Below are positions 1 to 29,426 of a stretch of 64,000 nt of DNA, piece after piece. The DNA is from a virus. The first letter of the stretch is position 1. The number at the start of each line of letters is the position of its first letter. The stretch lies in the IMG/VR virus record IMGVR_UViG_3300048074_000065. One strand, 5' to 3'. Position numbers and translations under genes: made by a program. The notes under the pieces are model-generated. The model was not told where the DNA came from and searched no databases. It worked only from the letters and a program-made list of their open reading frames with translations.

Positions 1-77
1 TGCGAGCCAACGGTGGACACGCGAATGCCACTGAGATCAGGACGGCGGTATTCACGCAACACTTGGTCATCGTTCAT
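1..77 (-). CDS. hypothetical protein, first 25 codons only (gene continues past the left edge)
   Basis: ATG at 77-75 is preceded by a GAGGAGAG RBS, with an AATCTAA motif in the SD-ATG spacer. The frame stays open to position 1. Confidence 0.5.
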   Translation of the reverse strand, partial: MNDDQVLREYRRPDLSGIRVSTVGS

Positions 78-113
78 TTAGATTCTCTCCTCTAGATGAT
101 TTAGATTCCACGA

Positions 114-440
114 TTAGATTCCGGTTTTCGACTGTCGCCATGCCGCCAGCGCCCGCTGACCGCGCCGGTTGAGGTAGCCCTCCAGGGCGATCATACGCTG
201 TGCCTGGTCATCGCTGATCAGGACGGGCACGGGGGTCTCGACGGACTGGGCCAGGACCTTGCGCCCCGCGTCGGTGATGACGTAGACTGGGATGCCGTAG
301 CGCTCCTCGACCTGCGTGATTAGACTCAGGCGGCGAAGTAGGTCGGCGGTCGAGTAGGGAACGATGCCCCAGTAGCCTTCCGGGACGTTGGCGATGTGCT
401 CCAGGTAGGTGCGGCTGCGATTGCTCAGGGGGCGAGTCAT
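114..440 (-). CDS. hypothetical protein (108 aa)
   Basis: ORF track. GGAGG RBS and ATGA overlap with the upstream gene. The TAA stop is supplied by a TTAGATT motif. Confidence 0.65.
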   Translation of the reverse strand: MTRPLSNRSRTYLEHIANVPEGYWGIVPYSTADLLRRLSLITQVEERYGIPVYVITDAGRKVLAQSVETPVPVLISDDQAQRMIALEGYLNRRGQRALAAWRQSKTGI

Positions 441-1066
441 TGCGCCTCCGGGATACGGTCCAGTAGGTCACGGATTTCTTGCAGGAAGGGCGGATACACG
501 AACTCAGGATGTGTCCGATTGACCACCGCCAATGTGTCACAGGCGGTGCTGAGATAGCTGACCAACTCGGCATAGGTCGGGACGTTCTTCTTCGCGCGCC
601 ATGCCGCCAGATCAGCCTGGCCACGGGCATTCAATTCGCCTTCGTGCTTCACCATGAGCGCCGCGAGTCCATCGGGGATCACCGGCTCGCTGGTCTTCAC
701 GTCGAGGGCAGGCACGCCCTGGGACGCCGCAAGCGCCTGCATGACCGACTGTTCGTCCCCATTCAGCTCGGCGACCGCGAACTCGACGGTCAGACCGGGC
801 GCGGCTTCGTAGGTGGGGTCGGCGCGGAACAGGGGGGTAACTTGCTCGTCCGAGGCATTCCATACCACCAGGTCCTCCGTGCTCGCAGGCGGGCCAGCGT
901 AGCGGTGAGGCGTGCCCAATCCGGCATGGCGTGCCGCGCTATCGGCTTCATCGCGCTCGGCCTCGAACCCGGCCACCCAGTAGGTATTGATGTACTGCAC
1001 ATGGTCGAACTCTTCTTGGCGGCTAGCATACCAACCCGCCCCTGCCCACTTAAAGTTTTCGTGCAT
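437..1066 (-). CDS. hypothetical protein (209 aa)
   Basis: ORF track with a GGAGGAGAG RBS. It shares a C-terminal EGxLNxRGQxxLAAWRxxK motif with the downstream 108-aa protein. Confidence 0.65.
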   Translation of the reverse strand: MHENFKWAGAGWYASRQEEFDHVQYINTYWVAGFEAERDEADSAARHAGLGTPHRYAGPPASTEDLVVWNASDEQVTPLFRADPTYEAAPGLTVEFAVAELNGDEQSVMQALAASQGVPALDVKTSEPVIPDGLAALMVKHEGELNARGQADLAAWRAKKNVPTYAELVSYLSTACDTLAVVNRTHPEFVYPPFLQEIRDLLDRIPEAQ

Positions 1067-1090
1067 GGTGACTCTCTCCTCCGATTAGAT

Positions 1091-1474
1091 TTACGATTTA
1101 GATTCTAGCTGGTCGGGATGCTGGCGGTAATACGCCTGCTCGATCAGTGTCTCCACCACTTCGATCTGCGTGGTGCCGGTGGCCATGCGTTCGATCATGG
1201 CCTGGATGCGGGGCTGCAACTTGTGCAGCACGGGGCGGCGCTTGACGTAGGTCCACGCATCCAGCGGCGCGACGGTCTGCATGGCGATTTCCAGGGTCTC
1301 GGCGTCGTCGAAGTAGTGCCGGTAGCTGGTCGCGTCCGGCGAGGGGTGGATTTCCAGGACCCAGCGCTGGAGGGTCTGGTTGAAGGCAACTTCGTAGACC
1401 GCCCCCTGCTTCGTGACCTGGAAATTGCTTTCCCGGCGTTTGCTGACATTGGCATTCGTGCCCGGTCGAGTCAT
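1091..1474 (-). CDS. hypothetical protein (127 aa)
   Basis: ORF track with an AAGGAGG RBS. Confidence 0.65.
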   Translation of the reverse strand: MTRPGTNANVSKRRESNFQVTKQGAVYEVAFNQTLQRWVLEIHPSPDATSYRHYFDDAETLEIAMQTVAPLDAWTYVKRRPVLHKLQPRIQAMIERMATGTTQIEVVETLIEQAYYRQHPDQLESKS

Positions 1475-1531
1475 GGTGAGCGTCCTCCTTGGGAGGGGCG
1501 ACGTGCGCCGCCCCGTGGCGAGTAGATGAGC

Positions 1532-1960
1532 TTAGAATGAGGGTCCGTAGACCCAGTGGCGCAGATCGGCCAGGTCGCGCATGGCCTGTTCGGTCTCGGC
1601 GAAGGTGTCGTAGTGCTCCTTATCGTCTGCGCCAAGCCCCTGGGTACCCCAGTCCATGTACCAGCACTGGAGTTCGAAGTCATACCAGACGGAATAATAG
1701 CGGTCGCCCGTCCGGTAGTACAGGGTCGGGCCACCGGCCTTCAACTGCTGGAGCTTCTTGGAGACGACTGGACGCTCGTAGCTCTTGAGGGTGACTTGAT
1801 AGACGCCCCAGCGCTGGGGTATCCCGGCGTTGTCCCGGTCCTCATCGACCCGCAAAAACTTGACCGTGGCGTCCCCTTGACGCTCCATCTCCCAGGCTCG
1901 CCGCAGGGCGTCCGTGGGTTTAAAGTTGATGGTACAGGCTTCATAGGTGGTGCGGTTCAT
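1532..1960 (-). CDS. hypothetical protein (142 aa; internal start of the 222-aa track ORF)
   Basis: ATG at 1960 follows a GAGGAGAG RBS. Promoter 1991-2019 lies inside the longer ORF version, which argues for this shorter start. Confidence 0.6.
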   Translation of the reverse strand: MNRTTYEACTINFKPTDALRRAWEMERQGDATVKFLRVDEDRDNAGIPQRWGVYQVTLKSYERPVVSKKLQQLKAGGPTLYYRTGDRYYSVWYDFELQCWYMDWGTQGLGADDKEHYDTFAETEQAMRDLADLRHWVYGPSF

Positions 1961-1990
1961 CAGATTCTCTCCTCGATTAGATTCCATTCT

Positions 1991-2019
1991 AGTATATACG
2001 ATTAGGAGGCGTCCGTCAA
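1991..2019 (-). promoter_or_regulatory. sigma70-type promoter, TTGACG-17-TATACT
   Basis: Read on the minus strand: -35 at 2019-2014 and -10 at 1996-1991. It shares the 12-mer ATCGTATATACT with the promoters at 6231 and 8086. A TTAGATT copy sits at the predicted +1. Confidence 0.6.
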
Positions 2020-2651
2020 TGAGTTCCTGATTTAGATTCAGGGCGGGGCTGATCGACCAGCGGCAGCCGGACACGCTTCCGGCCTTTGGGGTCGGCGAAC
2101 AGGTCGATCCGTCCGCTGGCGTAGAGGTCCAGCCACAGGGCAGCGGTCGCGCCGTCGTGCTGATACCAGTCCAGGGGCGTCCCCCGGTCGGCGTCGCCAT
2201 GCCGCCACGTGTCGTGGTCTTTGAGGACTTCCCGAAACAGATCGTCGGGGGTCAGCGGCGGGGTCGGTTCGGCGCAGCCCGGAAGGGTCAAGCGGACGGT
2301 GGTATTACCGTGAATACACTCGACTTTCCCGGCTTTTTCCAGGCGGGCGATGCTGGGATCGAGCTTCAGGGGCGCGATGCGGGTTTCGCCGTGCCGGTCG
2401 CACAGGGTCACGAGCTGAGAAAACGCGCGTTCATCGGCGATCCGATGGGCCAGGGCCAGGGCTTCGACGCCCGCTTTGCACATGCAGTAGCGGTTCCCGA
2501 TTTTCCCGGTATCCAGGCAGGTCTTGCAATGGGCCAGGCTGGTCTGGGGAATATGCTCGACCGGCTGATAGGTGCTCAGATCGGCTTTTATCGGCGTGCC
2601 GGAAAACAGGGGGGTATCTTCACCCGTGGTAAACAGACTGAGTTGTTCCAT
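2016..2651 (-). CDS. hypothetical protein (211 aa)
   Basis: ORF track with a GGAG RBS. Cys-containing N-terminal half (CKTCLDTGKIGNRYCMC). Confidence 0.6.
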   Translation of the reverse strand: MEQLSLFTTGEDTPLFSGTPIKADLSTYQPVEHIPQTSLAHCKTCLDTGKIGNRYCMCKAGVEALALAHRIADERAFSQLVTLCDRHGETRIAPLKLDPSIARLEKAGKVECIHGNTTVRLTLPGCAEPTPPLTPDDLFREVLKDHDTWRHGDADRGTPLDWYQHDGATAALWLDLYASGRIDLFADPKGRKRVRLPLVDQPRPESKSGTH

Positions 2652-2652
2652 G

Positions 2653-3321
2653 TCAATCTCCAGCTAAAGTATAAGAGGGCATCGACCAGAAAAAGCTGGT
2701 CAGATCGCCGCAGCGGGCTTCACGTAGCCGGGCCGCGCCGTCACTGTCGGCGGCGCTCATGAATTTAGAGTCTGACCGTTGGAGCAGCCGACGGTAGAGC
2801 GGGCGGCGTTTATCGCGATTTAGATTCATGGTGTCCCAAACAGAATTTAGATTCGGGCTGGTCAGTTTGGAAATTAGATTGCGTTCTTTACGGCTCAAGA
2901 ATTTAGATTGCCCATCGGCGATCTGAAGGGCCAGCGCCCGCTCACGGGTCAGGCTGGCGTCAAACCGTTGGCCGTAGTGGAGATCATAGTGGAGGGCGGT
3001 CAGGCGGTCGCGCCAGTCGGTGATCGTGGGGCGGTGCAGCAGGATGATCGGGCGATCCGTCTGGAGGTCAGGCGACCATTGACCGCCATGCCAGCCGATA
3101 AAATCACCGTACTGTGATTTTGGATCGGGCAGCGTGCCGGGAATCACACACACTTCTGAATCAGAACGCCGCCGCACCAGTTCGATCAGCCGATGCGCCA
3201 CCAACCAGATCAGGCGGTCAGGCCGCACGGGCAGATCGGCTACCGGGATAACCCCGGTGTCGGCGGTGCGCTGGTGAACGGTGCGCAGCGCGTGCCAGGT
3301 GGTGAACGGTTGGGTTTCCAT
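2653..3321 (-). CDS. hypothetical protein (222 aa) whose coding sequence carries the periodic TTAGATT sub-array
   Basis: ATG at 3321 lies 2 nt after the upstream stop. The alternative GTG at 3366 has no RBS. Confidence 0.55.
   Translation of the reverse strand: METQPFTTWHALRTVHQRTADTGVIPVADLPVRPDRLIWLVAHRLIELVRRRSDSEVCVIPGTLPDPKSQYGDFIGWHGGQWSPDLQTDRPIILLHRPTITDWRDRLTALHYDLHYGQRFDASLTRERALALQIADGQSKFLSRKERNLISKLTSPNLNSVWDTMNLNRDKRRPLYRRLLQRSDSKFMSAADSDGAARLREARCGDLTSFFWSMPSYTLAGD
2765..2909 (-). repeat. iteron-like sub-array: GAATTTAGATTC-type sites at about 27-29 bp spacing
   Basis: Exact copies at 2819, 2847, 2874 and 2903. There is a one-mismatch copy (TTAGAGT) at 2765 and a degenerate TAGA-core site near 2794. 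The unit GAATTTAGATTC is near-palindromic. Confidence 0.7.
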
Positions 3322-3323
3322 GC

Positions 3324-3557
3324 CTAAAACATCCTCGCAGCGGGGCGGGAACGGGCGATCGTCCACCGTTCCCAGGCGCGGGCTTTAAAGACCTGGCAAT
3401 TGAGCAGCGTGTGGCGCGCGTCAAAACTTTCGTGCGCGGCAAAGACGGTGCCGGGTTCATAGCCGGGCGGAACTAAGACACCCCAGCCGGGCCAGGGGTT
3501 AGATTGCGCACTGCGCAGCGCGCGATAGGTGGCTTCATACATCAAACGGCGGTTCAT
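3324..3557 (-). CDS. hypothetical protein (77 aa)
   Basis: ATG at 3557 follows a GAGGAGAGAG RBS. Confidence 0.55.
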   Translation of the reverse strand: MNRRLMYEATYRALRSAQSNPWPGWGVLVPPGYEPGTVFAAHESFDARHTLLNCQVFKARAWERWTIARSRPAARMF

Positions 3558-3668
3558 GGTTGGATTCTCTCTCCTCAATATGTGGATTCATCCACGTTTG
3601 GATTCAACCCTTGCCGGGAGTCCGCCAACGCTCCAGGGCTGGCGGACTCTTGCGCACCGGTTGAACGG

Positions 3669-4355
3669 TTAGCGCAGAATCATATTCATGGTGGCGGTAG
3701 CTTGCCCGGCCTGATAGCCGTGGGCCGTGAAAAACGTTTCCAGATCGGCCAACATCGCCGCCGTAATGGCGTCGCGGCGGGCTTCCAGGGCCGTGGTGAT
3801 TTCCGCTTTCACTTCATCGATATAGGGGCGCAGATAGGACGCGAAACATTTGTACTTGCGCAGATAGCCGGACAGATCGCCTGCCATGCCGTCCGGGTGA
3901 TTCTGGAGCAGCGGATCATGGTTGGCCAACCAATGGCGGGGGAGTTCGCCGTCGGAGTCCAGGACGCCCCAATTGACATGATCTTTGAAAATGTCCGGGT
4001 TGGGCGGGGTGACGCCTGATTTAGATTCCCACCAGCCCGACCAGCCTAGCCAATACAGGGCGTTCGCGACATAGTGCATCGCCCCTTCTATATCCCACAG
4101 GTGCCATTTCAGCAGCGGGATAATGTCCGGGTGATAACGCTGAATGGTATCCACGCACTGCCCTGCCATGACACATCGACTGCTGGCGGCGCGTTTACCC
4201 TCGTAGATTTCACCGGTAATCGAAACGTCGGGCCGTCGATTCAGGCCGCCTAGGGTGACGTGGATCACGTGCAGCTCTCCCCCGCTGTATTTCAGGACAG
4301 GAGAATCGGCGAAATACTTGGAAATCGTGACCTGGAGTTTATTTTCGTTGTACAT
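3669..4355 (-). CDS. hypothetical protein (228 aa)
   Basis: ORF track with a GAGGAGAG RBS. Confidence 0.65.
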   Translation of the reverse strand: MYNENKLQVTISKYFADSPVLKYSGGELHVIHVTLGGLNRRPDVSITGEIYEGKRAASSRCVMAGQCVDTIQRYHPDIIPLLKWHLWDIEGAMHYVANALYWLGWSGWWESKSGVTPPNPDIFKDHVNWGVLDSDGELPRHWLANHDPLLQNHPDGMAGDLSGYLRKYKCFASYLRPYIDEVKAEITTALEARRDAITAAMLADLETFFTAHGYQAGQATATMNMILR

Positions 4356-4397
4356 GGTTTTTCTCTCCTCAGAGAATTAGATTCAGGGCGATTAGAT

Positions 4398-4670
4398 TTA
4401 GATTTGGACGGTGCGAAAACTGATCAGCACGTCGGGCGACTCGCCGTCGTGGTACTGATAGGACAGAGTCTCAGCGGCAAAATAGGTCACGAGGTCCAGG
4501 AGCGCGCGGTTGATGCGCAAGATGTCACGCCAATACGCGGTTTGGTCCGGATAACGGCGGATCAAGGCATACGCGAGTCGGATGTTGGCGCGGTAGTCAC
4601 GTTGATCACGCCGATACTGCATGAGGTCCGCTAACCGCTTATGATCGTTCGGGAGTTTGGTCGGTGACAT
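4398..4670 (-). CDS. hypothetical protein (90 aa)
   Basis: ORF track. The start context is AGAGGAGAATCTAAATCATG, so the motif lies in the SD-ATG spacer. A second motif copy supplies the stop. Confidence 0.6.
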   Translation of the reverse strand: MSPTKLPNDHKRLADLMQYRRDQRDYRANIRLAYALIRRYPDQTAYWRDILRINRALLDLVTYFAAETLSYQYHDGESPDVLISFRTVQI

Positions 4671-4722
4671 GATTTAGATTCTCCTCTTGAGAAATTAGAT
4701 TCTCAGATTTTAGATTGCGGAA

Positions 4723-5157
4723 TTAGATTGTACAGGACGGATATTTGATCTCGATCCACGCTTGCAGATGTTCCCAGCCTTGTTTGGCGGTTTCGGTTTG
4801 TTCGTAGTTCTGGAAACGCCCATAGGCCGGGCGGGGGTAGTACAGCTCGCGGGTCCGGCTGGTATCCTTCAGACGTCGGGCCAAGTGCTTATAGACGGCG
4901 GTCAGATATTCCGCTTGGCGTGATTGCGGGATAGTCTCCAGGGCCAGCCGGAAAGTAGACTCGACATCCTGTACAGCGGTATTCATGATCGAATCGTCGT
5001 GTTGTTGCCAGGTGTGCGCGTGTCCCAAATAGCAATAGCCGCACCGTGCATCAAAACCCCAGCCGGAATGAGTCGGCATAATGTCCCAGCCCTTGTATAG
5101 ATCGTCGTGAGGCTGGCGGTTAACGTCCCATCGTTGATTGTGCTGCTGGCGAAACAT
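4723..5157 (-). CDS. hypothetical protein (144 aa)
   Basis: ORF track with an AGAGGAG RBS. The stop is supplied by a TTAGATT motif. Confidence 0.65.
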   Translation of the reverse strand: MFRQQHNQRWDVNRQPHDDLYKGWDIMPTHSGWGFDARCGYCYLGHAHTWQQHDDSIMNTAVQDVESTFRLALETIPQSRQAEYLTAVYKHLARRLKDTSRTRELYYPRPAYGRFQNYEQTETAKQGWEHLQAWIEIKYPSCTI

Positions 5158-5175
5158 GGTAGTTTTCTCCTCTTG

Positions 5176-5382
5176 TTAACTCACGAGTCCAGCGGACAAT
5201 AGACGGTTGAACAGGGTTTCTCCGCTGGCATAGTGGACGGCCAGCGCATTGACGTAGTACACAAGGGCGATTAAGTCGCCATGTTGGGCAGCCTGTCGGC
5301 TGGCGGATTCCAGGGTCTCACAGGTGATGCGCCATTGATGCGCGCGATAGGTCAAGATCATTCGAACTAGTTTCGCTTTCAT
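5176..5382 (-). CDS. hypothetical protein (68 aa)
   Basis: ORF track with an AAGAGGAG RBS. Confidence 0.55.
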   Translation of the reverse strand: MKAKLVRMILTYRAHQWRITCETLESASRQAAQHGDLIALVYYVNALAVHYASGETLFNRLLSAGLVS

Positions 5383-5413
5383 GGTTGGATACTCCTCTTG
5401 GATAACTTGTCAC

Positions 5414-5460
5414 CTGACAGGGTAGGGGAAGTGTCCTAGACTTCCCTTACCTGATGTCAG
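5414..5460 (-). other. long intergenic stem-loop
   Basis: GGTAGGGGAAGT (5421-5432) pairs with ACTTCCCTTACC (5440-5451) with one G-U pair. An outer pairing joins CTGACA to TGTCAG. No U-tract follows on the transcribed strand. Confidence 0.55.
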
Positions 5461-5468
5461 CGGACAAA

Positions 5469-5666
5469 TCAGGCGGCGCGTAAGGTGACAATCTGGCCGC
5501 CGATAAATAGCGCGATGGCCAGCGATGAGCCGATAAGCAATTGCGAGCCGTCCGCAAACTCGTACAGCCGGTAGTGTGCACAGCTGTTCGGAAATTTCAC
5601 GCGGCGCACCGTGCATTTTTCGTGCGACAATTGGCGGATGAAAGACTTGAGTTCTTGGCGTGTCAT
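5469..5666 (-). CDS. hypothetical protein (65 aa), hydrophobic C-terminus
   Basis: ATG at 5666 follows an AAGAGGAG RBS. It is an internal start of the 83-aa track ORF. Confidence 0.55.
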   Translation of the reverse strand: MTRQELKSFIRQLSHEKCTVRRVKFPNSCAHYRLYEFADGSQLLIGSSLAIALFIGGQIVTLRAA

Positions 5667-5707
5667 GGTTGGATACTCCTCTTGTCTAAGGTCGGCTGAT
5701 AGGGGGA

Positions 5708-5977
5708 TTAGAGACCCCACACGCGAGTCATCTCAAAATCGGCATTGGCGTTCGGCGTACCCCACACACACTGCTGAGCGGTGATAGCGTTCGCGCGTTG
5801 CCATTCCGCATATTGAGCGGTATTGGCGAAAATGCCGACTAAGGTGGTCGCGATTTCATCTTCGCCCATGGTCACGAGATTACAGACTTCAATGTCGTTG
5901 TCGGCGTTGTAATGGACCTGATAGCGCTTGATTTCCGGCGCTTGGCTGTTCTGAGGCTTGCGGTTAAAGAATTTCAT
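5708..5977 (-). CDS. hypothetical protein (89 aa)
   Basis: ORF track with an AAGAGGAG RBS. Confidence 0.6.
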   Translation of the reverse strand: MKFFNRKPQNSQAPEIKRYQVHYNADNDIEVCNLVTMGEDEIATTLVGIFANTAQYAEWQRANAITAQQCVWGTPNANADFEMTRVWGL

Positions 5978-6005
5978 GATTGTGCTCCTCTTGGCTGATA
6001 AGGAC

Positions 6006-6167
6006 TTAGGAATGCTTGTTGATGATAAGTTCGCGCACTACTGAGCCTGCCCACTGTTCGAACGTCACATTTTCACGTTGGTTCTTGAGTTCGGCCATTT
6101 TCACAATGAAGGGCAGGGCGATAAAGAAGAGGGCGAAAGCGATAGTGTTGTAAGCGTTGAGTTCCAT
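6006..6167 (-). CDS. small membrane protein (53 aa)
   Basis: ATG at 6167 follows a purine-rich leader. One hydrophobic helix (AFALFFIALPFIV). The longer ORF version would include the promoter. Confidence 0.5.
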   Translation of the reverse strand: MELNAYNTIAFALFFIALPFIVKMAELKNQRENVTFEQWAGSVVRELIINKHS

Positions 6168-6230
6168 TTTCTTTCTCTCTCTTCTGTGGTAAACTTTCGG
6201 TAGTTCGTTCTGTTCTCTACTGATAGATAC

Positions 6231-6259
6231 AGTATATACGATAAGCGATAGCATGTCAA
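6231..6259 (-). promoter_or_regulatory. consensus sigma70-type promoter, TTGACA-17-TATACT, for the leftward operon
   Basis: Minus strand: -35 at 6259-6254 and -10 at 6236-6231. It lies about 65 nt upstream of the first leftward ATG. Confidence 0.7.
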
Positions 6260-6553
6260 GCGGAAAATAGGGGAAAATTCAAAACTCATTGGAAATAGGC
6301 GATTATTCATAAAACGTTCACAATTCAGGGGACAATCCACGCCTAGGACGTGACAGGCGATAGGGTATAAGACAAGAGGTGACACGATGGGCAGCACAGG
6401 ACACGACACACACGAGGGCGATAGCACGCCACAGGAGACGCTACACGACGCTGCGCAGCCGGTTGTGAGCGGTGCGAGCATGGCCAGCGCGCAGCCGGGC
6501 GATAGCGCGATAGGGGCGAACGTGCGGGAACAATACGGCGGAAATCGCGATAG
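6245..6553 (+). repeat. cluster of six (G)GCGATAG sites, with a seventh at 7056
   Basis: GCGATAG starts at 6245, 6357, 6418, 6499, 6507 and 6547. Two copies lie upstream of the terS-like ATG and four lie in its first 170 nt. Confidence 0.75.
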
Positions 6554-7073
6554 TGAACAAATGACGATTAATGAGCCAACTCAATTAAAAACACGATTAC
6601 ATGATCGCGTGTGGCTGCCTGCCCTTCTCTCTGCCCTTGCCGAATATCCCTCGCTCACTCGTGCCTGCGCGGCTGCCGGCGTCACTCGTGAGCATGTGTC
6701 ACACTTGCGTGCTAAGGACCCTGAATTTTACGCGCTCACTGAGGCGGCTAAGCACGCGGGAATGGAGCTGTTAGAAGACATTGCCGTTGATCGTGTCGTA
6801 GAAGGCATTTCTAGGCCTATCTACAATAAGGGGCAAGTAGTCGGCGAGTATCGCGATTACAGCGAACGTCTACACATAGAGCTGTTGCGCGCGAATAACG
6901 CCAAGTATCGCCAGGCGTCGCAGGGGGGAAACGGGGGAAACGTGAGCTATAATTTAGCAATCCACTTTTCTCCAGCGCCCGCCCATCTTGCGCCCAGCGC
7001 TGGCCAGCCCACGCCACACGATGATGTCATAGACGGCGACGTTGTAGCACAGGACGGCGATAGCGTAGAGTAG
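6387..7073 (+). CDS. terminase small subunit-like HTH protein (putative)
   Basis: AAGAGGTGA RBS. The segment LTRACAAAGVTREHVSHLR...LLEDIAVDRVVEGISRPIYNKGQVVGEYRDYSERLHIELLRANNAKYR resembles the HTH plus YSDxLLxxLLK pattern I associate with small terminases. It lies upstream of HNH and TerL. Confidence 0.45.
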   Translation: MGSTGHDTHEGDSTPQETLHDAAQPVVSGASMASAQPGDSAIGANVREQYGGNRDSEQMTINEPTQLKTRLHDRVWLPALLSALAEYPSLTRACAAAGVTREHVSHLRAKDPEFYALTEAAKHAGMELLEDIAVDRVVEGISRPIYNKGQVVGEYRDYSERLHIELLRANNAKYRQASQGGNGGNVSYNLAIHFSPAPAHLAPSAGQPTPHDDVIDGDVVAQDGDSVE

Positions 7074-7102
7074 CACAGGGCAGGGCATAGACGGCCATTG
7101 AG

Positions 7103-7133
7103 GCGCCCATCACAGACGATGGGCGCTATTGTT
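7103..7133 (+). terminator. candidate intrinsic terminator
   Basis: A 9-bp stem pairs GCGCCCATC with GATGGGCGC around a 6-nt loop, followed by TATTGTTG. Confidence 0.45.
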
Positions 7134-7322
7134 GCACAGTGTGTGCATAATGTTGCGAATTGAGGGGAGAATAGCGTATGTAAATAGAAAATTTAATACG
7201 CTATCCGATTCGTGTACACTGTGGGTTGTGCTTCGCGCCCGACACCGGCACCCGGCAGGACTTTGATACACCGGGGTACGCGAGGGGTGGTTGGTGGCTT
7301 TGTTTCGCATTCGAGCCTTCCC

Positions 7323-7350
7323 TTGTCTTTCCCGTGTTTTCTGCTACAAT
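7323..7350 (+). promoter_or_regulatory. candidate promoter, TTGTCT-16-TACAAT
   Basis: It lies 74 nt upstream of the HNH start. A 7-bp hairpin (7371-7398) sits in the leader. Confidence 0.35.
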
Positions 7351-7423
7351 TGTTCTATCCGCAATACGAAACCCCCGCGTGCTATGAACACCGGGGGTAT
7401 GATGAGCCTGACGGGAGGCCCAT

Positions 7424-7918
7424 GTGACCAAGCGTACCAGAAATCCTCGCAACGAACAAGACCCAACGTCGATTGAAAAACCTGCCTGGATGAAAGCGGA
7501 CCCTGCCCGTTTGAAGCGCTCCATCGTCCGTGTGCGAACGAGCAGCGCAGGCTGGATGGACAAGGCCGATCAGCGCCACAGGGAAACGAAAAAGAAGTTC
7601 CTCAAGAAGTGGCTGATAGAAAATCCAGGCAAGAAGAAAGCGTATGGCCACAATCGCCGTGCCCGCGAGATGTCTGCCCCCGGTTCCTTCACCGCTGCCG
7701 ACCTCGCGGTCCAGCGCCGTGCCCAAACCGACCGCCGGGGCGTGCTCCGCTGCTGGTGGTGTTCCGAGCCGCTGGGTGACGACCAGACGGTGGACCACCG
7801 CATCCCGCTGGCGAAGGGCGGGTCGAACAATCCCGACAACCTCGTGCTGGCGCATCTGCATTGCAATTGCAGCAAGGGCGCGAAGCTACCCTGGGAGTTC
7901 AATGGGCGGCTGATCTAG
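7424..7918 (+). CDS. HNH endonuclease (packaging-associated type)
   Basis: GTG start after a GGGAGG RBS. HNH core: CWWCSEPLGDDQTVDHRIPLAKGGSNNPDNLVLAHLHCNCSKG. Confidence 0.85.
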   Translation: MTKRTRNPRNEQDPTSIEKPAWMKADPARLKRSIVRVRTSSAGWMDKADQRHRETKKKFLKKWLIENPGKKKAYGHNRRAREMSAPGSFTAADLAVQRRAQTDRRGVLRCWWCSEPLGDDQTVDHRIPLAKGGSNNPDNLVLAHLHCNCSKGAKLPWEFNGRLI

Positions 7919-8085
7919 CGCTTCCCTCAACCATTGGGGAGGGAGATTCACCTGTTCATCCCAGCGATGAGCGTCTCAATGGTCCCAAAATCTCACGGGA
8001 AGTGATAATTGTGGACAGGAACACCCTGGATGTCAATCTTAATTAAGCAATCGCCCCGAATCCGCCGCCATCTCGCAACTGGCCC

Positions 8086-9898: not shown

Positions 9899-10552
9899 AT
9901 GACTGCCTATCTCTGCGATGTTCGCCAGTCCGTCATGGAGTTTATGCCCACCGAACCCGTTGACCTTATCTTTACCGATCCACCCTATGCGCGCAAGCAC
10001 CTCGAGCTGTATGGTTGGGTCGCCGAGTTTGGCAAGCGCGTGTTGCGACCTGGGGGCTTTGTCCTGGCCATGGGCGGCGGGTTGTTCACCGATGAAATTC
10101 TGCGGCTGATGGGTCAACATCTTCAGCATTACTTTACGTTCCATGTGGCCCTGACGGATAGCACCTCAACCAAGGTGTTTCCGCACGGTCGTCCCATGCC
10201 CATTATTTCGCGGTTGAAACCCATTTACGCCTTTACCAACGGGGAGGGCTATCCACGCACGGTCGTCTATGACCCGTTTGCCGGGGATGGCAACGATAAG
10301 CGCTTTCACCATTGGGGTCAGGACCTCAAAAGCGCGCGATACTACATCGACTGTTTTTCCAGTCCGGGTGATCTGGTCTGCGATCCGTTCATCGGCGGGG
10401 GAACCACGGCCGTAGTCTGCGAAGCATTGGGTCGGGAATGGATCGGCTTCGACCAAGACCCCCAGGCGGTGGAAACCACCAACGCACGGGCACGGAATCC
10501 ACTCTATGCCGCCTCTATTGATGGACAGTTGGCGCTGGAGTTTTCACGATGA
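9899..10552 (+). CDS. DNA methyltransferase, beta-class N6A/N4C (motif IV before motif I)
   Basis: Motif IV IFTDPPY. Motif I DLVCDPFIGGGTTAVV. Confidence 0.8.
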   Translation: MTAYLCDVRQSVMEFMPTEPVDLIFTDPPYARKHLELYGWVAEFGKRVLRPGGFVLAMGGGLFTDEILRLMGQHLQHYFTFHVALTDSTSTKVFPHGRPMPIISRLKPIYAFTNGEGYPRTVVYDPFAGDGNDKRFHHWGQDLKSARYYIDCFSSPGDLVCDPFIGGGTTAVVCEALGREWIGFDQDPQAVETTNARARNPLYAASIDGQLALEFSR

Positions 10553-11346
10553 ATCTGGATACCGTGACCTGTTGCGACTGGCGCGACTTGTTGGCGACGT
10601 TGGAGCCGGGCAGCGTGGACTTGCTGCTGACGGATATGCCCTACGGAAAAACTCAGGTTGAATGGGATAATCCGCCGGACCTGGCGGTGTGGTGGCAGTT
10701 GGTCCACCCCCTTATGCGTTCGGGCGGAGCCGTGGTCTGCACCGCTACTCAGCCCTTTACTAGCCAACTCGTGGTCAGTGGCCTGGATTGGTTTCGGTAC
10801 GAATGGATATGGCGCAAATCCAACTCGGTCGGGCATCTCAATGCCCATATCATGCCCCTGCAGCAGCATGAGAGCATCCTCGTGTTTGGAGAAAAGACAC
10901 CCGATTATTATCCACAATTGCGGGATCGAGTTCCGCATGGACGGACTAAAAATGGAACGCAGGGGGCGGCTTATGGGACCTTTCATCAGGAAGGAGTTCG
11001 CACGATAGAGTACGAGCAGGGTTACCCCTCCAGTGTGGTCGATTTCAATACATGCTATCATGACCGTGAGGCCGGGTTACACCCTACCCAGAAGCCCTTG
11101 GCGTTGTTTGAATACCTGATTCGCACCTATACCCTTCCCGATGATCTGGTAGTCGATCCCTTTTGTGGATCGGGAACTACCGCGCTGGCTGCCCGGAATC
11201 TGGGGCGGTTCTGGATTTGCGGTGACTTAGACCGGCATTATGTAGATGTCAGCCTGGATCGATTACGAATGCCCTTTGAAGCCTGCCGCGTTCCACCCGC
11301 AAGCGCTCCTCTTGAGGACCTACCCATGTTCGCGCGACCCTCATAA
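10549..11346 (+). CDS. DNA methyltransferase, beta-class, with an atypical DMPY catalytic motif
   Basis: LLLTDMPYG, HPTQKPLALFEYLI and DLVVDPFCGSGTTALAA. ATGA overlap with the preceding methyltransferase. Confidence 0.75.
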   Translation: MNLDTVTCCDWRDLLATLEPGSVDLLLTDMPYGKTQVEWDNPPDLAVWWQLVHPLMRSGGAVVCTATQPFTSQLVVSGLDWFRYEWIWRKSNSVGHLNAHIMPLQQHESILVFGEKTPDYYPQLRDRVPHGRTKNGTQGAAYGTFHQEGVRTIEYEQGYPSSVVDFNTCYHDREAGLHPTQKPLALFEYLIRTYTLPDDLVVDPFCGSGTTALAARNLGRFWICGDLDRHYVDVSLDRLRMPFEACRVPPASAPLEDLPMFARPS

Positions 11347-11403: not shown

Positions 11404-12837
11404 ATGCCCCGTCGCCCCATACCTAAATCCCCTTCCACTGCGCCTTCTGACCGCACGGCTCGTGTGGTCACCTTGGATATGTATCTTCCAGGTGTCATCC
11501 ACCATCCCAAGCAGTTGGCGTTTCTTATCTCGCGTGCTCGTTATAAGGTGCTGCGCGCTGGTCGTCGTGGGGGCAAAACGGTCGCGTCAGCGACGGAAGC
11601 GGTGTTGGAGTTCCTGGGCCTGCAACTGGACGCCGATGGGTCCTATCGAGTAGTCAAAGATGGCGGACGAGTGCTGTACATTTCCCCCACCGCCAAACAG
11701 GTGCGCCGCTTCTGGTATGAGGTCAAAGCCGCGCTCAAGCCCATGCTTGAGGCCAATATCTATTACCTCAACGAGACGCAACATCTCATCGAAGTGCCCG
11801 GCACGCGCTTCTGTATCCAGGCCATGACGGGCTGGAACCCCAGCAGTTTGCGTGGGGATAATGCCGACCTCCTGATCTTCGACGAGTACCAACTCATGGA
11901 CGAGACGGTCTGGGAGAAGGTCGGCGCTCCGATGCTGATGGACACGCGCGGGCGCGCCATCTTCATCTACACTCCGCCCAGCCTGCATTCCGAAGAACGC
12001 TCTAACGCCAACGATCCTCGTCACGCCGCCAAGCTGTACAAAAAGGCGGCGGAAGATACGACCGGGGAATGGGCGACCTTCCACTTCTCGTCGCAAGAAA
12101 ACCCATATCTACCGCCGGGCGCAGTCGATGACATGTCGAAGGTCATGACCCGCCTGGCCTACGAGCAGGAAATCCTGGCGCTGGACCGCGATGAAGCCCC
12201 AGGCGCGTTCTGGAACCACGCCCTGATTGACGCGGGGCGGGTCGATCATATGCCTGAACTGTCCCGGCTGGTGATTGGTGTCGATCCGCCGGGCGGCATC
12301 GCGGAATGCGGGATTGTGGTGGTGGGCAAGGGCATCGATGGCCATTATTACATCGTGGGTGACTTTAGCCTGCAAGGATCGCCGGGCGAATGGGCGGGGG
12401 CGGTCATTCACGCCTATCGGGAGTTTGCCGCCGACCGGGTGGTCGCCGAAAAGAACTTCGGGGGCGAGATGGTCGAGCACACCATTCGCACGGCCAAGGG
12501 CGGTCGCGACATCCCGGTGCAGGTGGTGACCGCCTACCGGGGCAAGGCGCTGCGGGCCGAACCGGTGGCGTCGTTGTACGAACGCGGGCTGGTGCATCAC
12601 GTGGGGTCCTATCCGTACCTGGAAGACCAGATGTGCACCTGGGAAGCCGATGCGAAGAACCAGAAATCTCCCGACCGGTTGGACGCCATGGTGCATGGTG
12701 TGTCCTACCTGCTCAACACCAGCAGTAAGTCCCTGCGCCGCGTTAAAGTCCAGGGATTGTATGCCTCCCAACAATTGAGGTATACTAAAGGTCAGCGATC
12801 ACCTAGAGTCCGGGGTCATGAAACCCCCCAGGAGTAA
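11404..12837 (+). CDS. terL: terminase large subunit
   Basis: 477 aa. Walker A GRRGGKT and Walker B LLIFDEYQ. C-terminal nuclease-like region (VIGVDPPGG...). The portal gene lies downstream. Confidence 0.85.
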   Translation: MPRRPIPKSPSTAPSDRTARVVTLDMYLPGVIHHPKQLAFLISRARYKVLRAGRRGGKTVASATEAVLEFLGLQLDADGSYRVVKDGGRVLYISPTAKQVRRFWYEVKAALKPMLEANIYYLNETQHLIEVPGTRFCIQAMTGWNPSSLRGDNADLLIFDEYQLMDETVWEKVGAPMLMDTRGRAIFIYTPPSLHSEERSNANDPRHAAKLYKKAAEDTTGEWATFHFSSQENPYLPPGAVDDMSKVMTRLAYEQEILALDRDEAPGAFWNHALIDAGRVDHMPELSRLVIGVDPPGGIAECGIVVVGKGIDGHYYIVGDFSLQGSPGEWAGAVIHAYREFAADRVVAEKNFGGEMVEHTIRTAKGGRDIPVQVVTAYRGKALRAEPVASLYERGLVHHVGSYPYLEDQMCTWEADAKNQKSPDRLDAMVHGVSYLLNTSSKSLRRVKVQGLYASQQLRYTKGQRSPRVRGHETPQE

Positions 12838-16571: not shown

Positions 16572-16801
16572 GCACCGATGAACGATATACGCTGGAAGGC
16601 GTTTTGGGGCGTTTGCAACAAGAGAAAGAATGGGCTGATCAAGCGTATTCCCTGCTGAAACTCATTTCGGGTTCGGAATGGGCCAACTCGGAGTTTAATC
16701 CTACCGTAATCCAAGCGGCGCGATCTATAGCTGATATTGTGGCCTATCTCGATCTCAAAATCTTCGAGTTCGAGCGCGCGATTCTGGAGGATAAAAAATG
16801 A
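16568..16801 (+). CDS. hypothetical protein (77 aa)
   Basis: ATG at 16568. ATGA overlap with the dehydrogenase gene. Confidence 0.5.
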   Translation: MSTDERYTLEGVLGRLQQEKEWADQAYSLLKLISGSEWANSEFNPTVIQAARSIADIVAYLDLKIFEFERAILEDKK

Positions 16802-18132
16802 CGACTCTCTCGGTCGTAGGACTCGGTAAACTCGGTTCCCCCCTGCTGGCGGTGCTCGCCAACGCAGGCTTCTCCGTGATTGGCGTGGATACGGATGAGG
16901 CGAAGGTCGCAGCGATCAACGCGGGGAAAGCGCCGGTCGAAGAGACGGACTTGCAGGAGTGGCTGGATGGGCTAAAGGGCACGCATTACTATAAGCCTAA
17001 ATTCTCGGCCACCACCGACTTGCGCCAAGCCGTGCTGGACTCCGACACGACGTTCGTCATCGTACCCACGCCCAGCGGGCTGGACGGTGGCTTCGTGCTG
17101 GATTACCTGCTGCCGGTGATGACGGAGATCGGTCACGCCTTGCGCGATGCCGAACATTATCACGTGGTTGTGATTACCAGCACGGTGATGCCCGGACAAA
17201 CCGCCGAGTGTGGAGCGGTCCTGGAAAGTATCAGCGGCAAGAAGTTGGGCGACCATTTCGGGTTGGTGTATTCCCCGACCTTTATAGCCCTAGGTAGTGT
17301 CATCAGAAATCTCACCCAGCCATACTATGCGGTCATCGGAACGGATGATGGGCGAGCCGAGTTTGCGGTCGGTGACATCTATAACAAGATCATCGTGAAT
17401 GGCGCGTCAGTCAATCGGGCCTCACAGATCAATGTCGAAGTCGCCAAGATCGCGCAGAATGCGTTTCTGGCCATGAAGATGGCGTTTGCCAACGACTTGG
17501 GACGGTTGTGCGAGTATCTGCCCGGCGCGAACGCTGATGTGGTCCTGGGACTGCTGGGGCAAGACCTCCGCATTGGCGCTCTCAATCTCACAGCGGGCAC
17601 GGCGGTGGGCGGGCCATGTCTGCCACGGGACTCGCGGGCGCTGGAGCAGGTTTACCAGCGGGCAGGCGTTCCAAAGACAGCGTGCTTATCCTTACGGGAG
17701 TTGGTAGACATCATGAACGACGCGACGACGGAACATCTATGGCGTATCGTGGAGAAGGAAGCGGGCGACGAGGGCGTGGTCGGCGTGCTGGGGTTAGCGT
17801 ACAAGCCCGGTACCTCGGTCTGCGAAGAGTCTGCCAGCCTGGACCTGATAGACCACCTGCTGATGAACCCTCACCGCCGCGTGGTGGTCTACGACCCGCT
17901 GGCGATGGATGAGGCGCGCAAGGAACTGGGGTGCGCGGTCGAGTATGCGGATAGCCCAGAGGATTGCGTGGCTAAGTCGGATGTCGTGGTGCTGATGTTC
18001 CCCGATGCCGAGCTAGTTCCCGTGAATGCCTACACGCGCGAGAAAACCCTCGTGGACCCCTGGCGTGCGGCGCAACCGCCTCTGACCGAATCGGTGTTGT
18101 TCAAGTACATTCCGCTGGGGGTGGGGCAATGA
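16798..18132 (+). CDS. nucleotide-sugar 6-dehydrogenase, closest by eye to GDP-mannose 6-dehydrogenase (AlgD-like)
   Basis: N-terminal GLGKLG Rossmann motif. Blocks TTDLRQAVLDSDTTFVIVPTPS and HVVVITSTVMPG. The catalytic block GGPCLPRDSRAL matches my memory of AlgD (GGSCLPKDVRAL). Confidence 0.75.
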   Translation: MTTLSVVGLGKLGSPLLAVLANAGFSVIGVDTDEAKVAAINAGKAPVEETDLQEWLDGLKGTHYYKPKFSATTDLRQAVLDSDTTFVIVPTPSGLDGGFVLDYLLPVMTEIGHALRDAEHYHVVVITSTVMPGQTAECGAVLESISGKKLGDHFGLVYSPTFIALGSVIRNLTQPYYAVIGTDDGRAEFAVGDIYNKIIVNGASVNRASQINVEVAKIAQNAFLAMKMAFANDLGRLCEYLPGANADVVLGLLGQDLRIGALNLTAGTAVGGPCLPRDSRALEQVYQRAGVPKTACLSLRELVDIMNDATTEHLWRIVEKEAGDEGVVGVLGLAYKPGTSVCEESASLDLIDHLLMNPHRRVVVYDPLAMDEARKELGCAVEYADSPEDCVAKSDVVVLMFPDAELVPVNAYTREKTLVDPWRAAQPPLTESVLFKYIPLGVGQ

Positions 18133-18527
18133 GCAACCATTATGTGTATATGGACGGCGAACCCTTCAGCGGTGCAGTCCTGGAACCTCCTACCCTGACC
18201 GCCGAATATATAGCGGGAGAGGATATTCGGGCGGGGGACATCGTGGGGCGGTATCCGCATCGTCGCGATCTCAAGGTATGGCGTATGCACAACCCCACCC
18301 GCACCGAGCGACTGTTGAAATTCCTGCGACGCGGAGGTCCGTTGCAATTCGCGGGCATTGCACAGCATGACGTAGAAAAGAACGAACAACTCACCGTCAT
18401 TGTCAAAACGGGCACCCTGACTATGGCGGTCAAGAAGTCGATCTATGCCCAACCGGGCATTGACGAACGCACGCCCATCGGCTATGTGGATGAAAACGGC
18501 CATGTCATCATAGGGAAGAAGCCATGA
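18129..18527 (+). CDS. hypothetical protein (132 aa), possibly a DUF2190-like beta fold
   Basis: ATGA overlap. The pattern AGEDIRAGDIVG...FAGIAQHDVEKNEQLTVIVKTG loosely resembles the decoration protein at 31055. Confidence 0.5.
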   Translation: MSNHYVYMDGEPFSGAVLEPPTLTAEYIAGEDIRAGDIVGRYPHRRDLKVWRMHNPTRTERLLKFLRRGGPLQFAGIAQHDVEKNEQLTVIVKTGTLTMAVKKSIYAQPGIDERTPIGYVDENGHVIIGKKP

Positions 18528-19495
18528 TGCGAGCACTGGTCACAGGCGCAGGCGGGTTCATCGGCAGCCACTTGGTCGAGTACCTGAAGGCCAAGGGCTA
18601 CTGGGTACGCGGCGTCGATAAGAAGTACCCGGAGTTCTCTGACTCTGCCGCCGACGAGTTCCTGCTGCTAGACCTTACCTACCCCTTGGCGGCCACCGAA
18701 GCGCTGGCGGGCGGGTTCGATGAAGTCTACGCGCTGGCGGCGGAGATGGGCGGCATGGGCTATATCAGTCAGCAGGGAGCGTACATCCTGCACCAGAACG
18801 CGCTCATCAACCTCAATACGATTGAGGCGGCGCGGCACGCCAAAGTCGGTCGTTACCTGTACACGTCGAGCGCGTGCGTGTATCCAGGCTTCAAACAGAC
18901 GACCCTGGACGCCGCCCCCCTCAAGGAGAGCGATGCGCTTCCGGCATGGCCCGACACCGAGTATGGCTGGGAGAAGTTGTACGCCGAGACGGTGGCGTTG
19001 GCCTATGCGCGGCAGTATGGCATGACGGTGCGCATCCCGCGTTTCCATAATTGCATGGGGCCTAAAGGGGCGTGGATAGGCGGGCGTGAGAAAGCGCCTG
19101 CCGCCTTGTGCCGTAAGATAGCGACGGCCAAACTAGAGGGGCAGAACCCCGTCAAGATCGAGGTCTGGGGTGACGGCACGGCCACGCGCTCCTTTATATA
19201 TATAGACGACTGCCTGGAAGGCGTCTACCGCCTCATGCACAGCCACTACCCTGCTCCGCTCAACATCGGCAGCGACCGCGCCATCTCGATCAACGAGCTG
19301 GCGTATGCGATTGCACGGATTGCAGGCGTGGGCATCGAGCTGGTCCATGTGGAGGGGCCGGTGGGCGTGCAGGGGCGTAACTCGGACAATACACTGGCGA
19401 AAGCGGTGCTGGACTGGGAACCGCAACGCTCGCTGGATGGCGGGCTGGAATTGACGTACAAGTGGATAGAGGAGCAGGTGAAGGCGACCCTATGA
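18524..19495 (+). CDS. extended SDR NAD-dependent epimerase, GDP-mannose 3,5-epimerase-like
   Basis: TGAGGFIGSH and YGWEKLYAE (YxxxK). RIPRFHNCMGPKGAWIGGREKAPAALCRK matches the GME block RFHNIYGPFGTWKGGREKAPAAFCRK. Confidence 0.7.
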   Translation: MMRALVTGAGGFIGSHLVEYLKAKGYWVRGVDKKYPEFSDSAADEFLLLDLTYPLAATEALAGGFDEVYALAAEMGGMGYISQQGAYILHQNALINLNTIEAARHAKVGRYLYTSSACVYPGFKQTTLDAAPLKESDALPAWPDTEYGWEKLYAETVALAYARQYGMTVRIPRFHNCMGPKGAWIGGREKAPAALCRKIATAKLEGQNPVKIEVWGDGTATRSFIYIDDCLEGVYRLMHSHYPAPLNIGSDRAISINELAYAIARIAGVGIELVHVEGPVGVQGRNSDNTLAKAVLDWEPQRSLDGGLELTYKWIEEQVKATL

Positions 19496-20082: not shown

Positions 20083-20110
20083 TTCGGTATATGTTCTTAT
20101 CTACAGTCGG

Positions 20111-25817: not shown

Positions 25818-25830
25818 GGTGAGAACTAAA

Positions 25831-26779: not shown

Positions 26780-26821
26780 ATACAACTATCTATTATGGTA
26801 TAATTAAGTTTGACAATATAT

Positions 26822-26850: not shown

Positions 26851-26876
26851 GCGAGACTGTCTGTAAGGAGACGTCT

Positions 26877-29420: not shown

Positions 29421-29426
29421 GAAAGT

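Follow-up and report, generated by a model that had tools for sequence, protein, structure and literature searches.

The leftward operon and its promoters

We analysed a 64,000-nt stretch of viral DNA, IMG/VR record IMGVR_UViG_3300048074_000065 (hereafter "the window"), one end of which is occupied by an operon of 16 genes without an assigned function. The operon is transcribed leftward (window 1-6167, minus strand) and runs approximately 950 nt past the left edge of the window to a GC-rich hairpin at its terminus, for a total length of 7.1 kb. Its distal 4.65 kb (window 78-4729) is populated by a short repeated word, TTAGATT on the plus strand, and this word is the subject of the present analysis. 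As the genes under it lie on the minus strand, the word reads AATCTAA in the sense orientation. Searches of the operon proteins against Pfam and PHROGs assigned no function to any of them, Rfam detected no RNA family in the operon and a tRNA search found none.

Two sigma70-type promoters were recognised for the operon. The strong operon promoter P1 (TTGACA, 17 nt, TATACT; window 6231-6259, minus strand) is divergent from the small terminase gene (window 6387-7073), and the internal promoter P2 (TTGACG, 17 nt, TATACT; window 1991-2019, minus strand), recognised by consensus match only, has atcgtaTATACT in common with it. A third promoter of the sigma70 type heads the replication module. The gene annotation of the genome contains no RNA polymerase, sigma factor, integrase or recognisable repressor. 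It is reasonable to infer that the operon is early and transcribed by the host polymerase, which agrees with an earlier note on this window, made from the letters alone, that had called it an early operon. Ribosome-binding sites in the operon are far more stereotyped than those of the other modules, with GAGGAGA at 8 of the 16 starts.

Copy number, strand and exactness of the word

The earlier note had listed twenty co-oriented copies of TTAGATT between positions 78 and 4729, had found no further copy by eye and had judged the word to be rare on grounds of base composition. A scan of both strands of the 64 kb confirmed the count, the coordinates and the strand. The word occurs on the plus strand with starts at 78, 101, 114, 1085, 1098, 1977, 2032, 2820, 2847, 2874, 2903, 3499, 4021, 4377, 4392, 4398, 4674, 4695, 4710 and 4723, and neither strand has it at any other position. 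No further copy is present in the part of the genome that lies beyond the window (locus L001, 9.5 kb), so that all 20 copies of a genome of approximately 73.5 kb fall within one 4.65 kb stretch. Dinucleotide-preserving shuffles of the whole window (n = 100, both strands; G+C of the window 51-62%) contained 2.59 copies on average and at most 7, with none of them reaching 20; the corresponding expectation is approximately 0.1 copy per 4.7 kb per strand. The same DNA was recovered in independent assemblies from several samples (73,521 and 73,614 bp), and the sequence is therefore real.

The word is exact. When the sites of this genome were pooled with those of the two related lineages described below (37 distinct sites), the seven core positions were invariant. 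The flanks were biased as well, with G at -1 in 28 of the 37 sites, A or T at +7 in 36 and T at +8 in 27, giving an extended consensus of G-AATCTAA-W-T and a total information of approximately 17-18 bits; a word-bearing duplex with its flanks is GAATCTAAATCGTGAATCTAATCG. Eight sense copies with one mismatch were found in the same region on the minus strand (window 320, 1532, 1960, 2765, 3560, 3598, 4203 and 4703), compared to approximately 1.3 expected in the region from the rate in the remaining window. Examples are GGAGAGAATCTGATG at 1960 and ATTCTAA at 1532, which provides a stop codon. That 20 exact copies are accompanied by only eight with one mismatch suggests that the signal acts as an exact word.

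We also observed that 12 of the 20 copies include GAATC, a GANTC site. The density of GANTC is 7.1 per kb in the first 4.8 kb of the window and 2.3 per kb elsewhere, and two adjacent genes for PF01555 (N6/N4) methyltransferases are present at window 9899-11346.

Placement of the copies along the operon

The first four genes of the operon (1.4 kb) hold no copy, and there is none near P1. The first occurrence of the word is a four-copy array (starts at 4723, 4710, 4695 and 4674; window 4674-4729, minus strand) that fills the spacer between a 144-aa and a 90-aa gene; its first copy provides the TAA stop codon, and its last comes after the Shine-Dalgarno sequence and before the ATG (GAGGAGAATCTAAATCATG). 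A three-copy array follows between the 90-aa and 228-aa genes (4398, 4392 and 4377; window 4377-4404, minus strand). Two of its copies, at 4398 and 4392, overlap by 1 nt, one copy provides the stop codon, and the last is placed 7 nt upstream of AGGAGAGA. Single intragenic copies are found on the same strand at 4021-4027 in the 228-aa gene (window 3669-4355) and at 3499-3505 near the 5' end of the 77-aa gene (window 3324-3557). Four more intragenic copies, spaced by 29, 27 and 27 nt, occupy window 2820-2909 (minus strand) in the 222-aa gene (window 2653-3321), and no ribosome-binding site is near them.

Further downstream, two copies flank P2 (window 1977-2038, minus strand). The copy at 2032-2038 lies 12 nt upstream of the -35 hexamer, within the last codons of a 211-aa gene, and the copy at 1977-1983 begins 8 nt past the -10 hexamer, at approximately +1/+2, and is followed by TCGAGGAGAG. 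A pair with 13-nt spacing (window 1085-1104, minus strand) is located at the junction of the 127-aa and 209-aa genes (GAATCTAAATCGTAAATCTAATCGGAGGAGAG). The last array (three copies, window 78-120, minus strand) comes after a 108-aa gene; its first copy provides the stop codon of that gene, and its last separates the Shine-Dalgarno sequence of the next gene from the ATG (GGAGAGAATCTAAATG). The last gene of the operon holds no copy.

Two placements at gene starts are recurrent: AATCTAA-TCG-AGGAGAG, where the word is directly 5' of the Shine-Dalgarno sequence, and GGAG(AG)-AATCTAAAT-ATG, where it sits between the Shine-Dalgarno sequence and the start codon. A copy is present within 60 nt upstream of 7 of the 10 gene starts in the motif span, and within 20 nt at four of them; the three starts without an upstream copy are translationally coupled to the preceding gene. 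No comparable word was found upstream of the starts of 55 genes of the structural module and 40 genes of the replication module. Non-coding sequence makes up 8.7% of the span and yet is touched by 12 of the 20 copies (binomial P 1e-8). The remaining eight are fully intragenic, compared to approximately 0.1 expected, and they are read in one of two frames, either AAT CTA A.., which uses the rare codon CTA, or.AA TCT AA. The commonest start-to-start spacing in the arrays of two to four copies is 13 nt (7 pairs), with 6, 15, 21, 23 and 27-29 nt also observed, while spacings across the whole 4.65 kb are irregular and range from 6 to 971 nt.

These results agree with the earlier note, which had placed copies in the Shine-Dalgarno-to-ATG spacers of the starts at 77 and 4670 (copies 78-84 and 4674-4680), as the TAA stop of the minus-strand open reading frames ending at 114, 4398 and 4723, at the +1 of the promoter at 1991-2019 and inside open reading frames in different frames. 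Its view that the signal acts at the level of nucleic acid, in strict co-orientation with transcription, likewise stands: all 20 copies are on the sense strand, they occupy non-coding spacers and two frames, and, as described below, the word is kept between non-homologous genes in relatives.

Two side observations concern the same regions. The motif-free proximal genes carry a different repeated ribosome-binding cassette, CAAGAGGAGTATCCAACCATG, in three copies (window 5382-5403 and the 5664-5685 region; in L001 at 5382-5403, 5666-5687 and 7490-7512). Inside the four-copy array there is an antisense promoter-like match (TTGAGA, 18 nt, TAGATT; window 4687-4716, plus strand) whose -10 hexamer is supplied by the reverse complement of the word. 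An antisense RNA started there could carry UUAGAUU and be able to pair with every copy.

Conservation of the word around exchanged genes

Two related lineages carry the word. Lineage B was found through its small terminase (52% identity) and is represented by L127, L128 and L131, the last a 68,466-bp contig; lineage C was found through the 209-aa protein and is represented by L133. The word is present in 13 copies in lineage B and 10 in lineage C, all on the sense strand of the same operon, whereas shuffles of L128 contained a mean of 0.84 copies. P1 is kept in L127, and in the relatives too the word begins only approximately 2 kb past this conserved promoter. In the lineage B relative 6 of the 13 copies lie in the 5% of the span that is non-coding (P 2e-5), and the other 7 are fully intragenic. 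The variant AATCTGA is frequent in the relative; this proved to be ordinary coding sequence (AAT CTG A).

Compared to lineage B, the operon is homologous only at its two ends, with 39-61% identity for the first genes and 27-65% for the last, and the genes between them are unrelated. In lineage B these middle positions (cargo slots of L131, 4522-9058) include proteins with LPD29 and DUF4942 domains, which are known from the polyvalent proteins of mobile elements, and their presence points to a role of the operon's variable part in counter-defence.

Four slots of exchanged cargo are bounded by conserved spacers, namely the four-copy array, the three-copy array, the P2 region and two hairpin spacers that lack the word. 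The spacer with the four-copy array is 93% identical over 58 nt to L131 3949-4006 although the genes around it are non-homologous, and nucleotide homology with the relative starts exactly at the first copy of the array. In the three-copy array at 4377-4404, two copies are degenerate in the relative (AATCTGA and ACTCTAA), which shows that individual copies turn over. At P2 the arrangement TATACT, 7 nt, AATCTAATCGAGGAGAG is kept in the relative. The pair at 1085-1104 has an orthologous pair in both L131 and L133, and the first two copies of the array at 78-120 are orthologous in L131 while all three are present in L133. Across the aligned orthologous spacers, identity was 82 of 90 at core positions and 168 of 243 at others (Fisher P 1.5e-5). 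The cores are therefore better conserved than the neighbouring spacer, which shows that the word itself is under selection.

The two conserved hairpin spacers show that the word is not the sole kind of slot boundary. One of them, window 3558-3668 (L001 7399-7509), is 79% identical over 103 nt between lineages with unrelated genes on either side. A 12-bp GC-rich hairpin in this spacer (window 3618-3649) shows compensatory changes, and the spacer also includes a conserved palindrome, GTGGATgaATCCAC (GTGGAT..ATCCAC; window 3580-3597), also written ACGTGGATGAATCCACAT, which reads TGTGGAAccATCCACA in the relative.

A further similarity was noted inside two genes. The 222-aa protein (window 2653-3321) resembles a 456-aa protein (L131 6227-7597) over its N-terminal 60 residues only (37% identity, E 0.003), and both genes hold an internal word array, a pair in the case of the 456-aa gene, 420-500 nt from the start. 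The internal array may mark a domain or fusion boundary.

Searches of IMG/VR, a metagenome collection, reference phages and bacterial genomes gave no further motif-bearing relative. A near-identity DNA search with window 1-8000 against 50,697 reference phages had no match, and when IMG/VR was scanned for three spaced copies the sole matches, in unrelated contigs, were AT-rich tandem repeats. A metagenome scan for GAATCTAA, 6 nt, AATCTAA, 3-12 nt and AGGAG gave 13 matches, none of them related. The small terminase, the 209-aa protein and the 108-aa protein retrieved only the same three lineages from 5.8 billion proteins, and no relative of the 209-aa protein was found in IMG/VR. Bacterial genomes scanned with the large terminase yielded distant relatives only, all without the word.

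A model in which the word is read on mRNA

Because the word is conserved in related phages around different genes, it is almost certainly a control signal. It is a strongly selected, lineage-specific and strand-specific cis-element of the transcribed cargo part of one operon. Most likely its many copies are the recognition sites of a single trans-acting factor, which would hold down expression of this cargo part and spare the promoter-proximal genes. As to the molecule on which it is recognised, we tentatively and slightly favour the mRNA, with AATCTAA read by one sequence-specific factor, over a roadblock on DNA.

A factor of this kind would recognise AAUCUAA in single-stranded RNA, and it could be a translational repressor, a word-specific endoribonuclease or a small RNA with a 7-nt seed. 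Most arrays are positioned 3-7 nt upstream of a Shine-Dalgarno sequence, or between a Shine-Dalgarno sequence and the AUG, positions at which binding or cleavage would prevent the initiation of translation for each gene individually. The intragenic arrays would supply extra sites for decay or occupancy. We infer that the effect would be repressive, such that the cargo genes would be shut off late or throttled and the four motif-free promoter-proximal genes would escape.

Several observations are consistent with this model. A signal in RNA requires the sense strand, which fits the location of 20 of 20, 13 of 13 and 10 of 10 copies in the three lineages. All copies are inside the transcribed unit, with none upstream of P1 and none over the -35 and -10 hexamers of P2. 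The tight spacing is not phased to the DNA helix, and this suits recognition of a single strand. In addition, the word is predicted to be accessible on the mRNA, with a median unpaired probability of 0.35 compared to 0.02 for all windows. The enrichment in non-coding sequence, the recurrent placements beside the Shine-Dalgarno sequence of individual genes, the exactness of the 7-nt word, the conservation of its core and its absence from the start regions of the structural and replication modules agree with the model as well.

On the other hand, a number of points weigh against recognition on RNA. Compared to other windows rich in A and T, the word is not clearly more accessible by prediction (P 0.04 for this genome and 0.41 for the relative), and no conserved hairpin was found around it. 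Pfam and PHROG searches found no RNA-binding protein or RNase in the phage, and the fold of the only nucleic-acid-binding protein predicted in the operon, a winged helix, is one that normally binds DNA. No start codon is near the intragenic array of four copies, and the position of the strongest array is precisely the boundary at which a transcriptional roadblock would be expected. Finally, since orientation-dependent roadblocks on DNA exist (stoperators, PMC9283540), co-orientation alone is no proof of an RNA signal.

Alternative explanations

A roadblock on DNA is nearly as likely a reading as recognition on the mRNA. A phage protein that is monomeric or binds head to tail, possibly the 108-aa winged-helix protein, would occupy the asymmetric sites in duplex DNA as a stoperator-like operator, blocking elongating host RNA polymerase in an orientation-dependent manner as well as initiation at P2. 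The four-copy array would be the main barrier, placed after four constitutive genes, and the result would be negative feedback or early shut-off of the cargo, similar to the action of Aca proteins. The location of this largest array at the boundary between motif-free and motif-bearing genes, with one copy at +1/+2 of P2, is consistent with such a barrier. The intragenic arrays could be explained as additional barriers, and an information content of approximately 17-18 bits suits a DNA-binding protein in a 73 kb genome. By analogy, the cluster A repressors provide a precedent for asymmetric, oriented sites (PMC9283540). However, the main promoter P1 has no copy, spacings of 6, 13 and 15 bp are unfit for helical phasing, and all sites belong to one operon instead of being distributed over the genome. 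No homologue of a cluster A repressor was found by Pfam or PHROG searches, and the gene annotation of the phage shows no integrase or other sign of lysogeny.

A further point in favour of this reading is the 108-aa protein (window 114-440, minus strand), a predicted winged-helix protein that is encoded within the motif region in three of three lineages and whose stop codon is within a copy of the word. An AlphaFold model built from an 8-sequence alignment had a mean predicted local distance difference test score (pLDDT) of 84; a single-sequence prediction was uninformative (pLDDT 43). The top Foldseek matches of the model were all winged-helix regulators (RosR, MarR, PadR, BlaI and AspA), with weak scores (E 0.01 or worse, template modelling score about 0.5), and sub-threshold sequence hints agreed with winged-helix regulators. 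Based on the model it is plausible that this protein binds DNA, and it may possibly be the factor that recognises the word. However, RosR, MarR and PadR, the closest structural matches, are dimers that bind palindromes, and the real target of the 108-aa protein could be the palindrome GTGGATgaATCCAC in the operon spacer. It is possible that this palindrome is the operator of a dimeric regulator such as the 108-aa protein.

It could also be speculated that an undescribed RNA-level factor or 7-nt seed governs an exchangeable island of counter-defence genes, in which a gene dropped into a slot would inherit its regulation automatically, or that the word is an integron-like crossover site. We consider this unlikely, and more so than the two readings above.

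Another explanation dispenses with a factor. The word would be an unstructured AU-rich patch beside a strong Shine-Dalgarno sequence, acting as a translational enhancer or standby site through S1 or through pairing with 16S rRNA, and it would raise early expression of the cargo genes to a maximum. The unusually stereotyped and strong ribosome-binding sites of the operon (GAGGAGA at 8 of 16 starts) and the predicted accessibility of the word are in its favour, as is the variant AAUCUAAUC, which we take to be an 8-nt complement of the universal 16S segment GAUUAGAU (the "790 loop", GGAUUAGAUACCC). AU-richness alone, however, needs no seven invariant positions, and the first A, itself invariant, cannot pair with the 16S segment. 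Of the 20 copies only 4-5 show the 8-nt match, and an rRNA of 1.5 kb is expected to contain a 6-nt match by chance. Moreover, eight copies are intragenic and far from start codons, and the first four genes, presumably highly expressed, have another spacer (TATCCAACC), unlike the word-bearing ones. An enhancer is accordingly improbable.

Equally little credence is due to the proposal that the copies are recombination linkers or cassette boundaries through which co-infecting relatives exchange cargo, by homologous or integron-like recombination, with no role in expression. It would account for the four successive slots with non-homologous genes between conserved spacers and for the onset of homology exactly at the first copy of the four-copy array, and the LPD29 and DUF4942 domains in the cargo of the relative are typical of mobile counter-defence proteins. 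Nevertheless, the boundaries at the hairpin spacers 3558-3668 and 1475-1531 are equally conserved without the word, so that any conserved regulatory spacer can evidently act as a boundary. The 7-nt cores outlast the intervening spacer sequence, which points to recognition of the word and not to recent exchange. The intragenic copies and the strict exactness are left unexplained, and no recombinase is linked to the operon.

The earlier note had offered an RNA element or a polar DNA signal, the latter as an operator or as a site of partition, replication or injection control. An RNA element and an orientation-dependent operator are both plausible, as set out above. Partition, replication and injection control fit poorly, because the word is found only in transcribed sequence and at ribosome-binding regions, is spread irregularly over 4.65 kb and starts 1.4-2 kb inside the operon. 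The wider proposal of a polar signal for a translocating machine (Chi-like protection from host exonuclease of the end that enters first, packaging termination, an injection pause or replication iterons) is the least probable of the readings considered, and we regard it as very unlikely. Exact, co-oriented words that are dense in both coding and non-coding DNA do resemble signals of the Chi or KOPS type, and the operon adjoins the small terminase and HNH genes and hence may lie at the end that is packaged last and injected first. However, the 1.4-2 kb nearest to this presumed end, P1 included, is free of copies, the copies are strongly concentrated at ribosome-binding regions, and iterons are regular within a few hundred bp; to our knowledge, all known Chi sequences are G-rich.

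Three other candidates were rejected. The sense word lacks the key -10 positions of a promoter, its copies are only 6-15 nt apart, and canonical sigma70-type promoters are present; no phage RNA polymerase or sigma factor was found. A peptide repeat does not agree with copies in two frames and in non-coding DNA, and a hairpin does not agree with complementary flanks that occur at some copies only, with nothing consistent among them.

Other features of the genome

Outside the operon, the genome is made up of a structural module, which includes a sortase and numerous glycosyl- and methyltransferases, a module encoding DnaB and an RNA ligase, and a RusA/exonuclease unit. The set of sugar-modification genes within the structural module (window about 16800-33700) is unusually large and includes a UDP-glucose dehydrogenase, an epimerase, several glycosyltransferases and several methyltransferases. 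Together with the sortase gene (43414-43911), it suggests that the virion proteins are glycosylated or covalently anchored. The large terminase (window 11404-12837) is closest, among reference phages, to that of the Methanosarcina virus MetMV (47% identity over 80% of the protein), and further relatives are found in Rhodospirillales and Dehalococcoidia genome bins.

Two putative RNAs were noted in L001 coordinates. The first (L001 15512-15586, minus strand), beyond the window, has a tRNA-like T-arm and acceptor end (GGTGTGAGTTCGAATCTCACCGTCTCCA) and is located in a 1.4 kb gene-free region (L001 14730-16132). Its match to the transfer-messenger RNA (tmRNA) family of Rfam (E 2e-6, 24 bits) is below the gathering score of 47, and ARAGORN reported no tRNA or tmRNA for the element. 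Judged from its sequence, it may be a phage-encoded tmRNA-like or other structured RNA. The second, also beyond the window and beside the RusA gene (L001 13122-13163, minus strand), is a near-threshold match to the Rfam abiF RNA (34.7 bits compared to a gathering score of 37).

Comparison with known systems

Conserved, co-oriented short motifs among non-structural phage genes have been reported repeatedly, as stoperators, as start-associated sequences and as motifs of Microbacterium phages, with the mechanism known for stoperators only. The word described here is an unusually clean case: it is exact, confined to one segment and kept while the genes around it are replaced, and there is a sharp boundary between motif-free and motif-bearing genes within one transcription unit. 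If it is read by an RNA-level factor, the system would amount to a portable and compact unit by which a group of genes is switched off jointly, and the word would be a marker for variable early or counter-defence gene islands in uncultivated phages. If it is a roadblock on DNA, polarity control of the stoperator type would extend beyond temperate actinobacteriophages.

The repressors of cluster A mycobacteriophages (L5 gp71, TipsytheTRex) recognise asymmetric sites of 13 bp, more than 20 in number, that lie in short intergenic spaces; the orientation of these stoperators correlates with transcription, and reversing a site abolishes repression (PMC9283540). Like them, the word is short, asymmetric, strictly oriented with transcription and present in many copies, mostly in short intergenic spaces, with some copies overlapping stop or start codons and one at a promoter (PMC9283540). 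In placement, 12 of the 20 copies are in or touch non-coding spacers, one is at +1/+2 of P2 and none is at P1. In contrast to stoperators, it has a 7-nt core (approximately 10 nt with flanks) rather than 13 bp, and it forms tight arrays with 13-nt spacing. Stoperators are distributed genome-wide, whereas the copies here are limited to 4.65 kb of one operon, with none in the other approximately 69 kb, and 40% of them (8 of 20) are intragenic. Furthermore, Pfam and PHROG searches found no related repressor (helix-turn-helix plus stoperator domain), the one candidate being the unrelated 108-aa predicted winged-helix protein, and there is no integrase.

The start-associated sequences (SAS) and extended start-associated sequences (ESAS) of cluster K mycobacteriophages are 13 bp long, contain the Shine-Dalgarno sequence and lie 3-7 bp from starts (PMC3203893). 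Cluster EF Microbacterium phages also have start-associated sequences, cluster EC phages have an 18-bp asymmetric intergenic motif, and cluster EG phages have repeats that are kept although their genes have diverged (PMC7302621). The word resembles SAS and the EC motif in being asymmetric, in a single orientation, restricted to non-structural genes and close to start codons, and in being conserved across diverged relatives upstream of unrelated genes while absent from other phages. Unlike SAS, it does not include the Shine-Dalgarno sequence but flanks it on one side or the other, and it occurs in arrays of two to four and not once per gene. Moreover, 8 of the 20 copies here and 7 of the 13 in the relative are fully intragenic, whereas SAS are essentially never intragenic.

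Post-transcriptional control offers a second parallel, as the word occupies the ribosome-binding regions of presumably early mRNAs much as the targets of RegA and RegB do. The RegA operators and RegB cleavage sites of T4 are words at or near the ribosome-binding sites of early mRNAs, and they mediate the post-transcriptional shut-off of a temporal class. RegB has as its word the GGAG that forms part of the Shine-Dalgarno sequence, and conservation among RegA sites is loose, whereas the word here is exact and multi-copy. No homologue of RegA or RegB was detected by Pfam or PHROG searches of the operon proteins, nor among the precomputed Pfam matches of the remaining genome.

The organisation of the operon is reminiscent of acr-aca operons, which combine a strong early promoter and rapidly exchanged cargo with a small conserved protein of the helix-turn-helix type near the distal end. 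Here too a strong promoter and exchanged cargo are accompanied by a conserved small predicted winged-helix protein in a distal position. However, Aca proteins act on one or two inverted repeats located at the promoter rather than on 20 co-oriented heptamers, and the cargo here is without known function. Replication iterons, which are regular repeats of approximately 17-22 bp by an initiator gene, differ from the word in its 7-nt core, irregular spacing and lack of an initiator nearby.

Taken together, these comparisons show that the word belongs to the known class of conserved, co-oriented short motifs among non-structural phage genes. It lacks defining features of both stoperators and start-associated sequences, and it is set apart from the other members of the class by its exact 7-nt form, its arrays and its confinement to one segment of a single operon.

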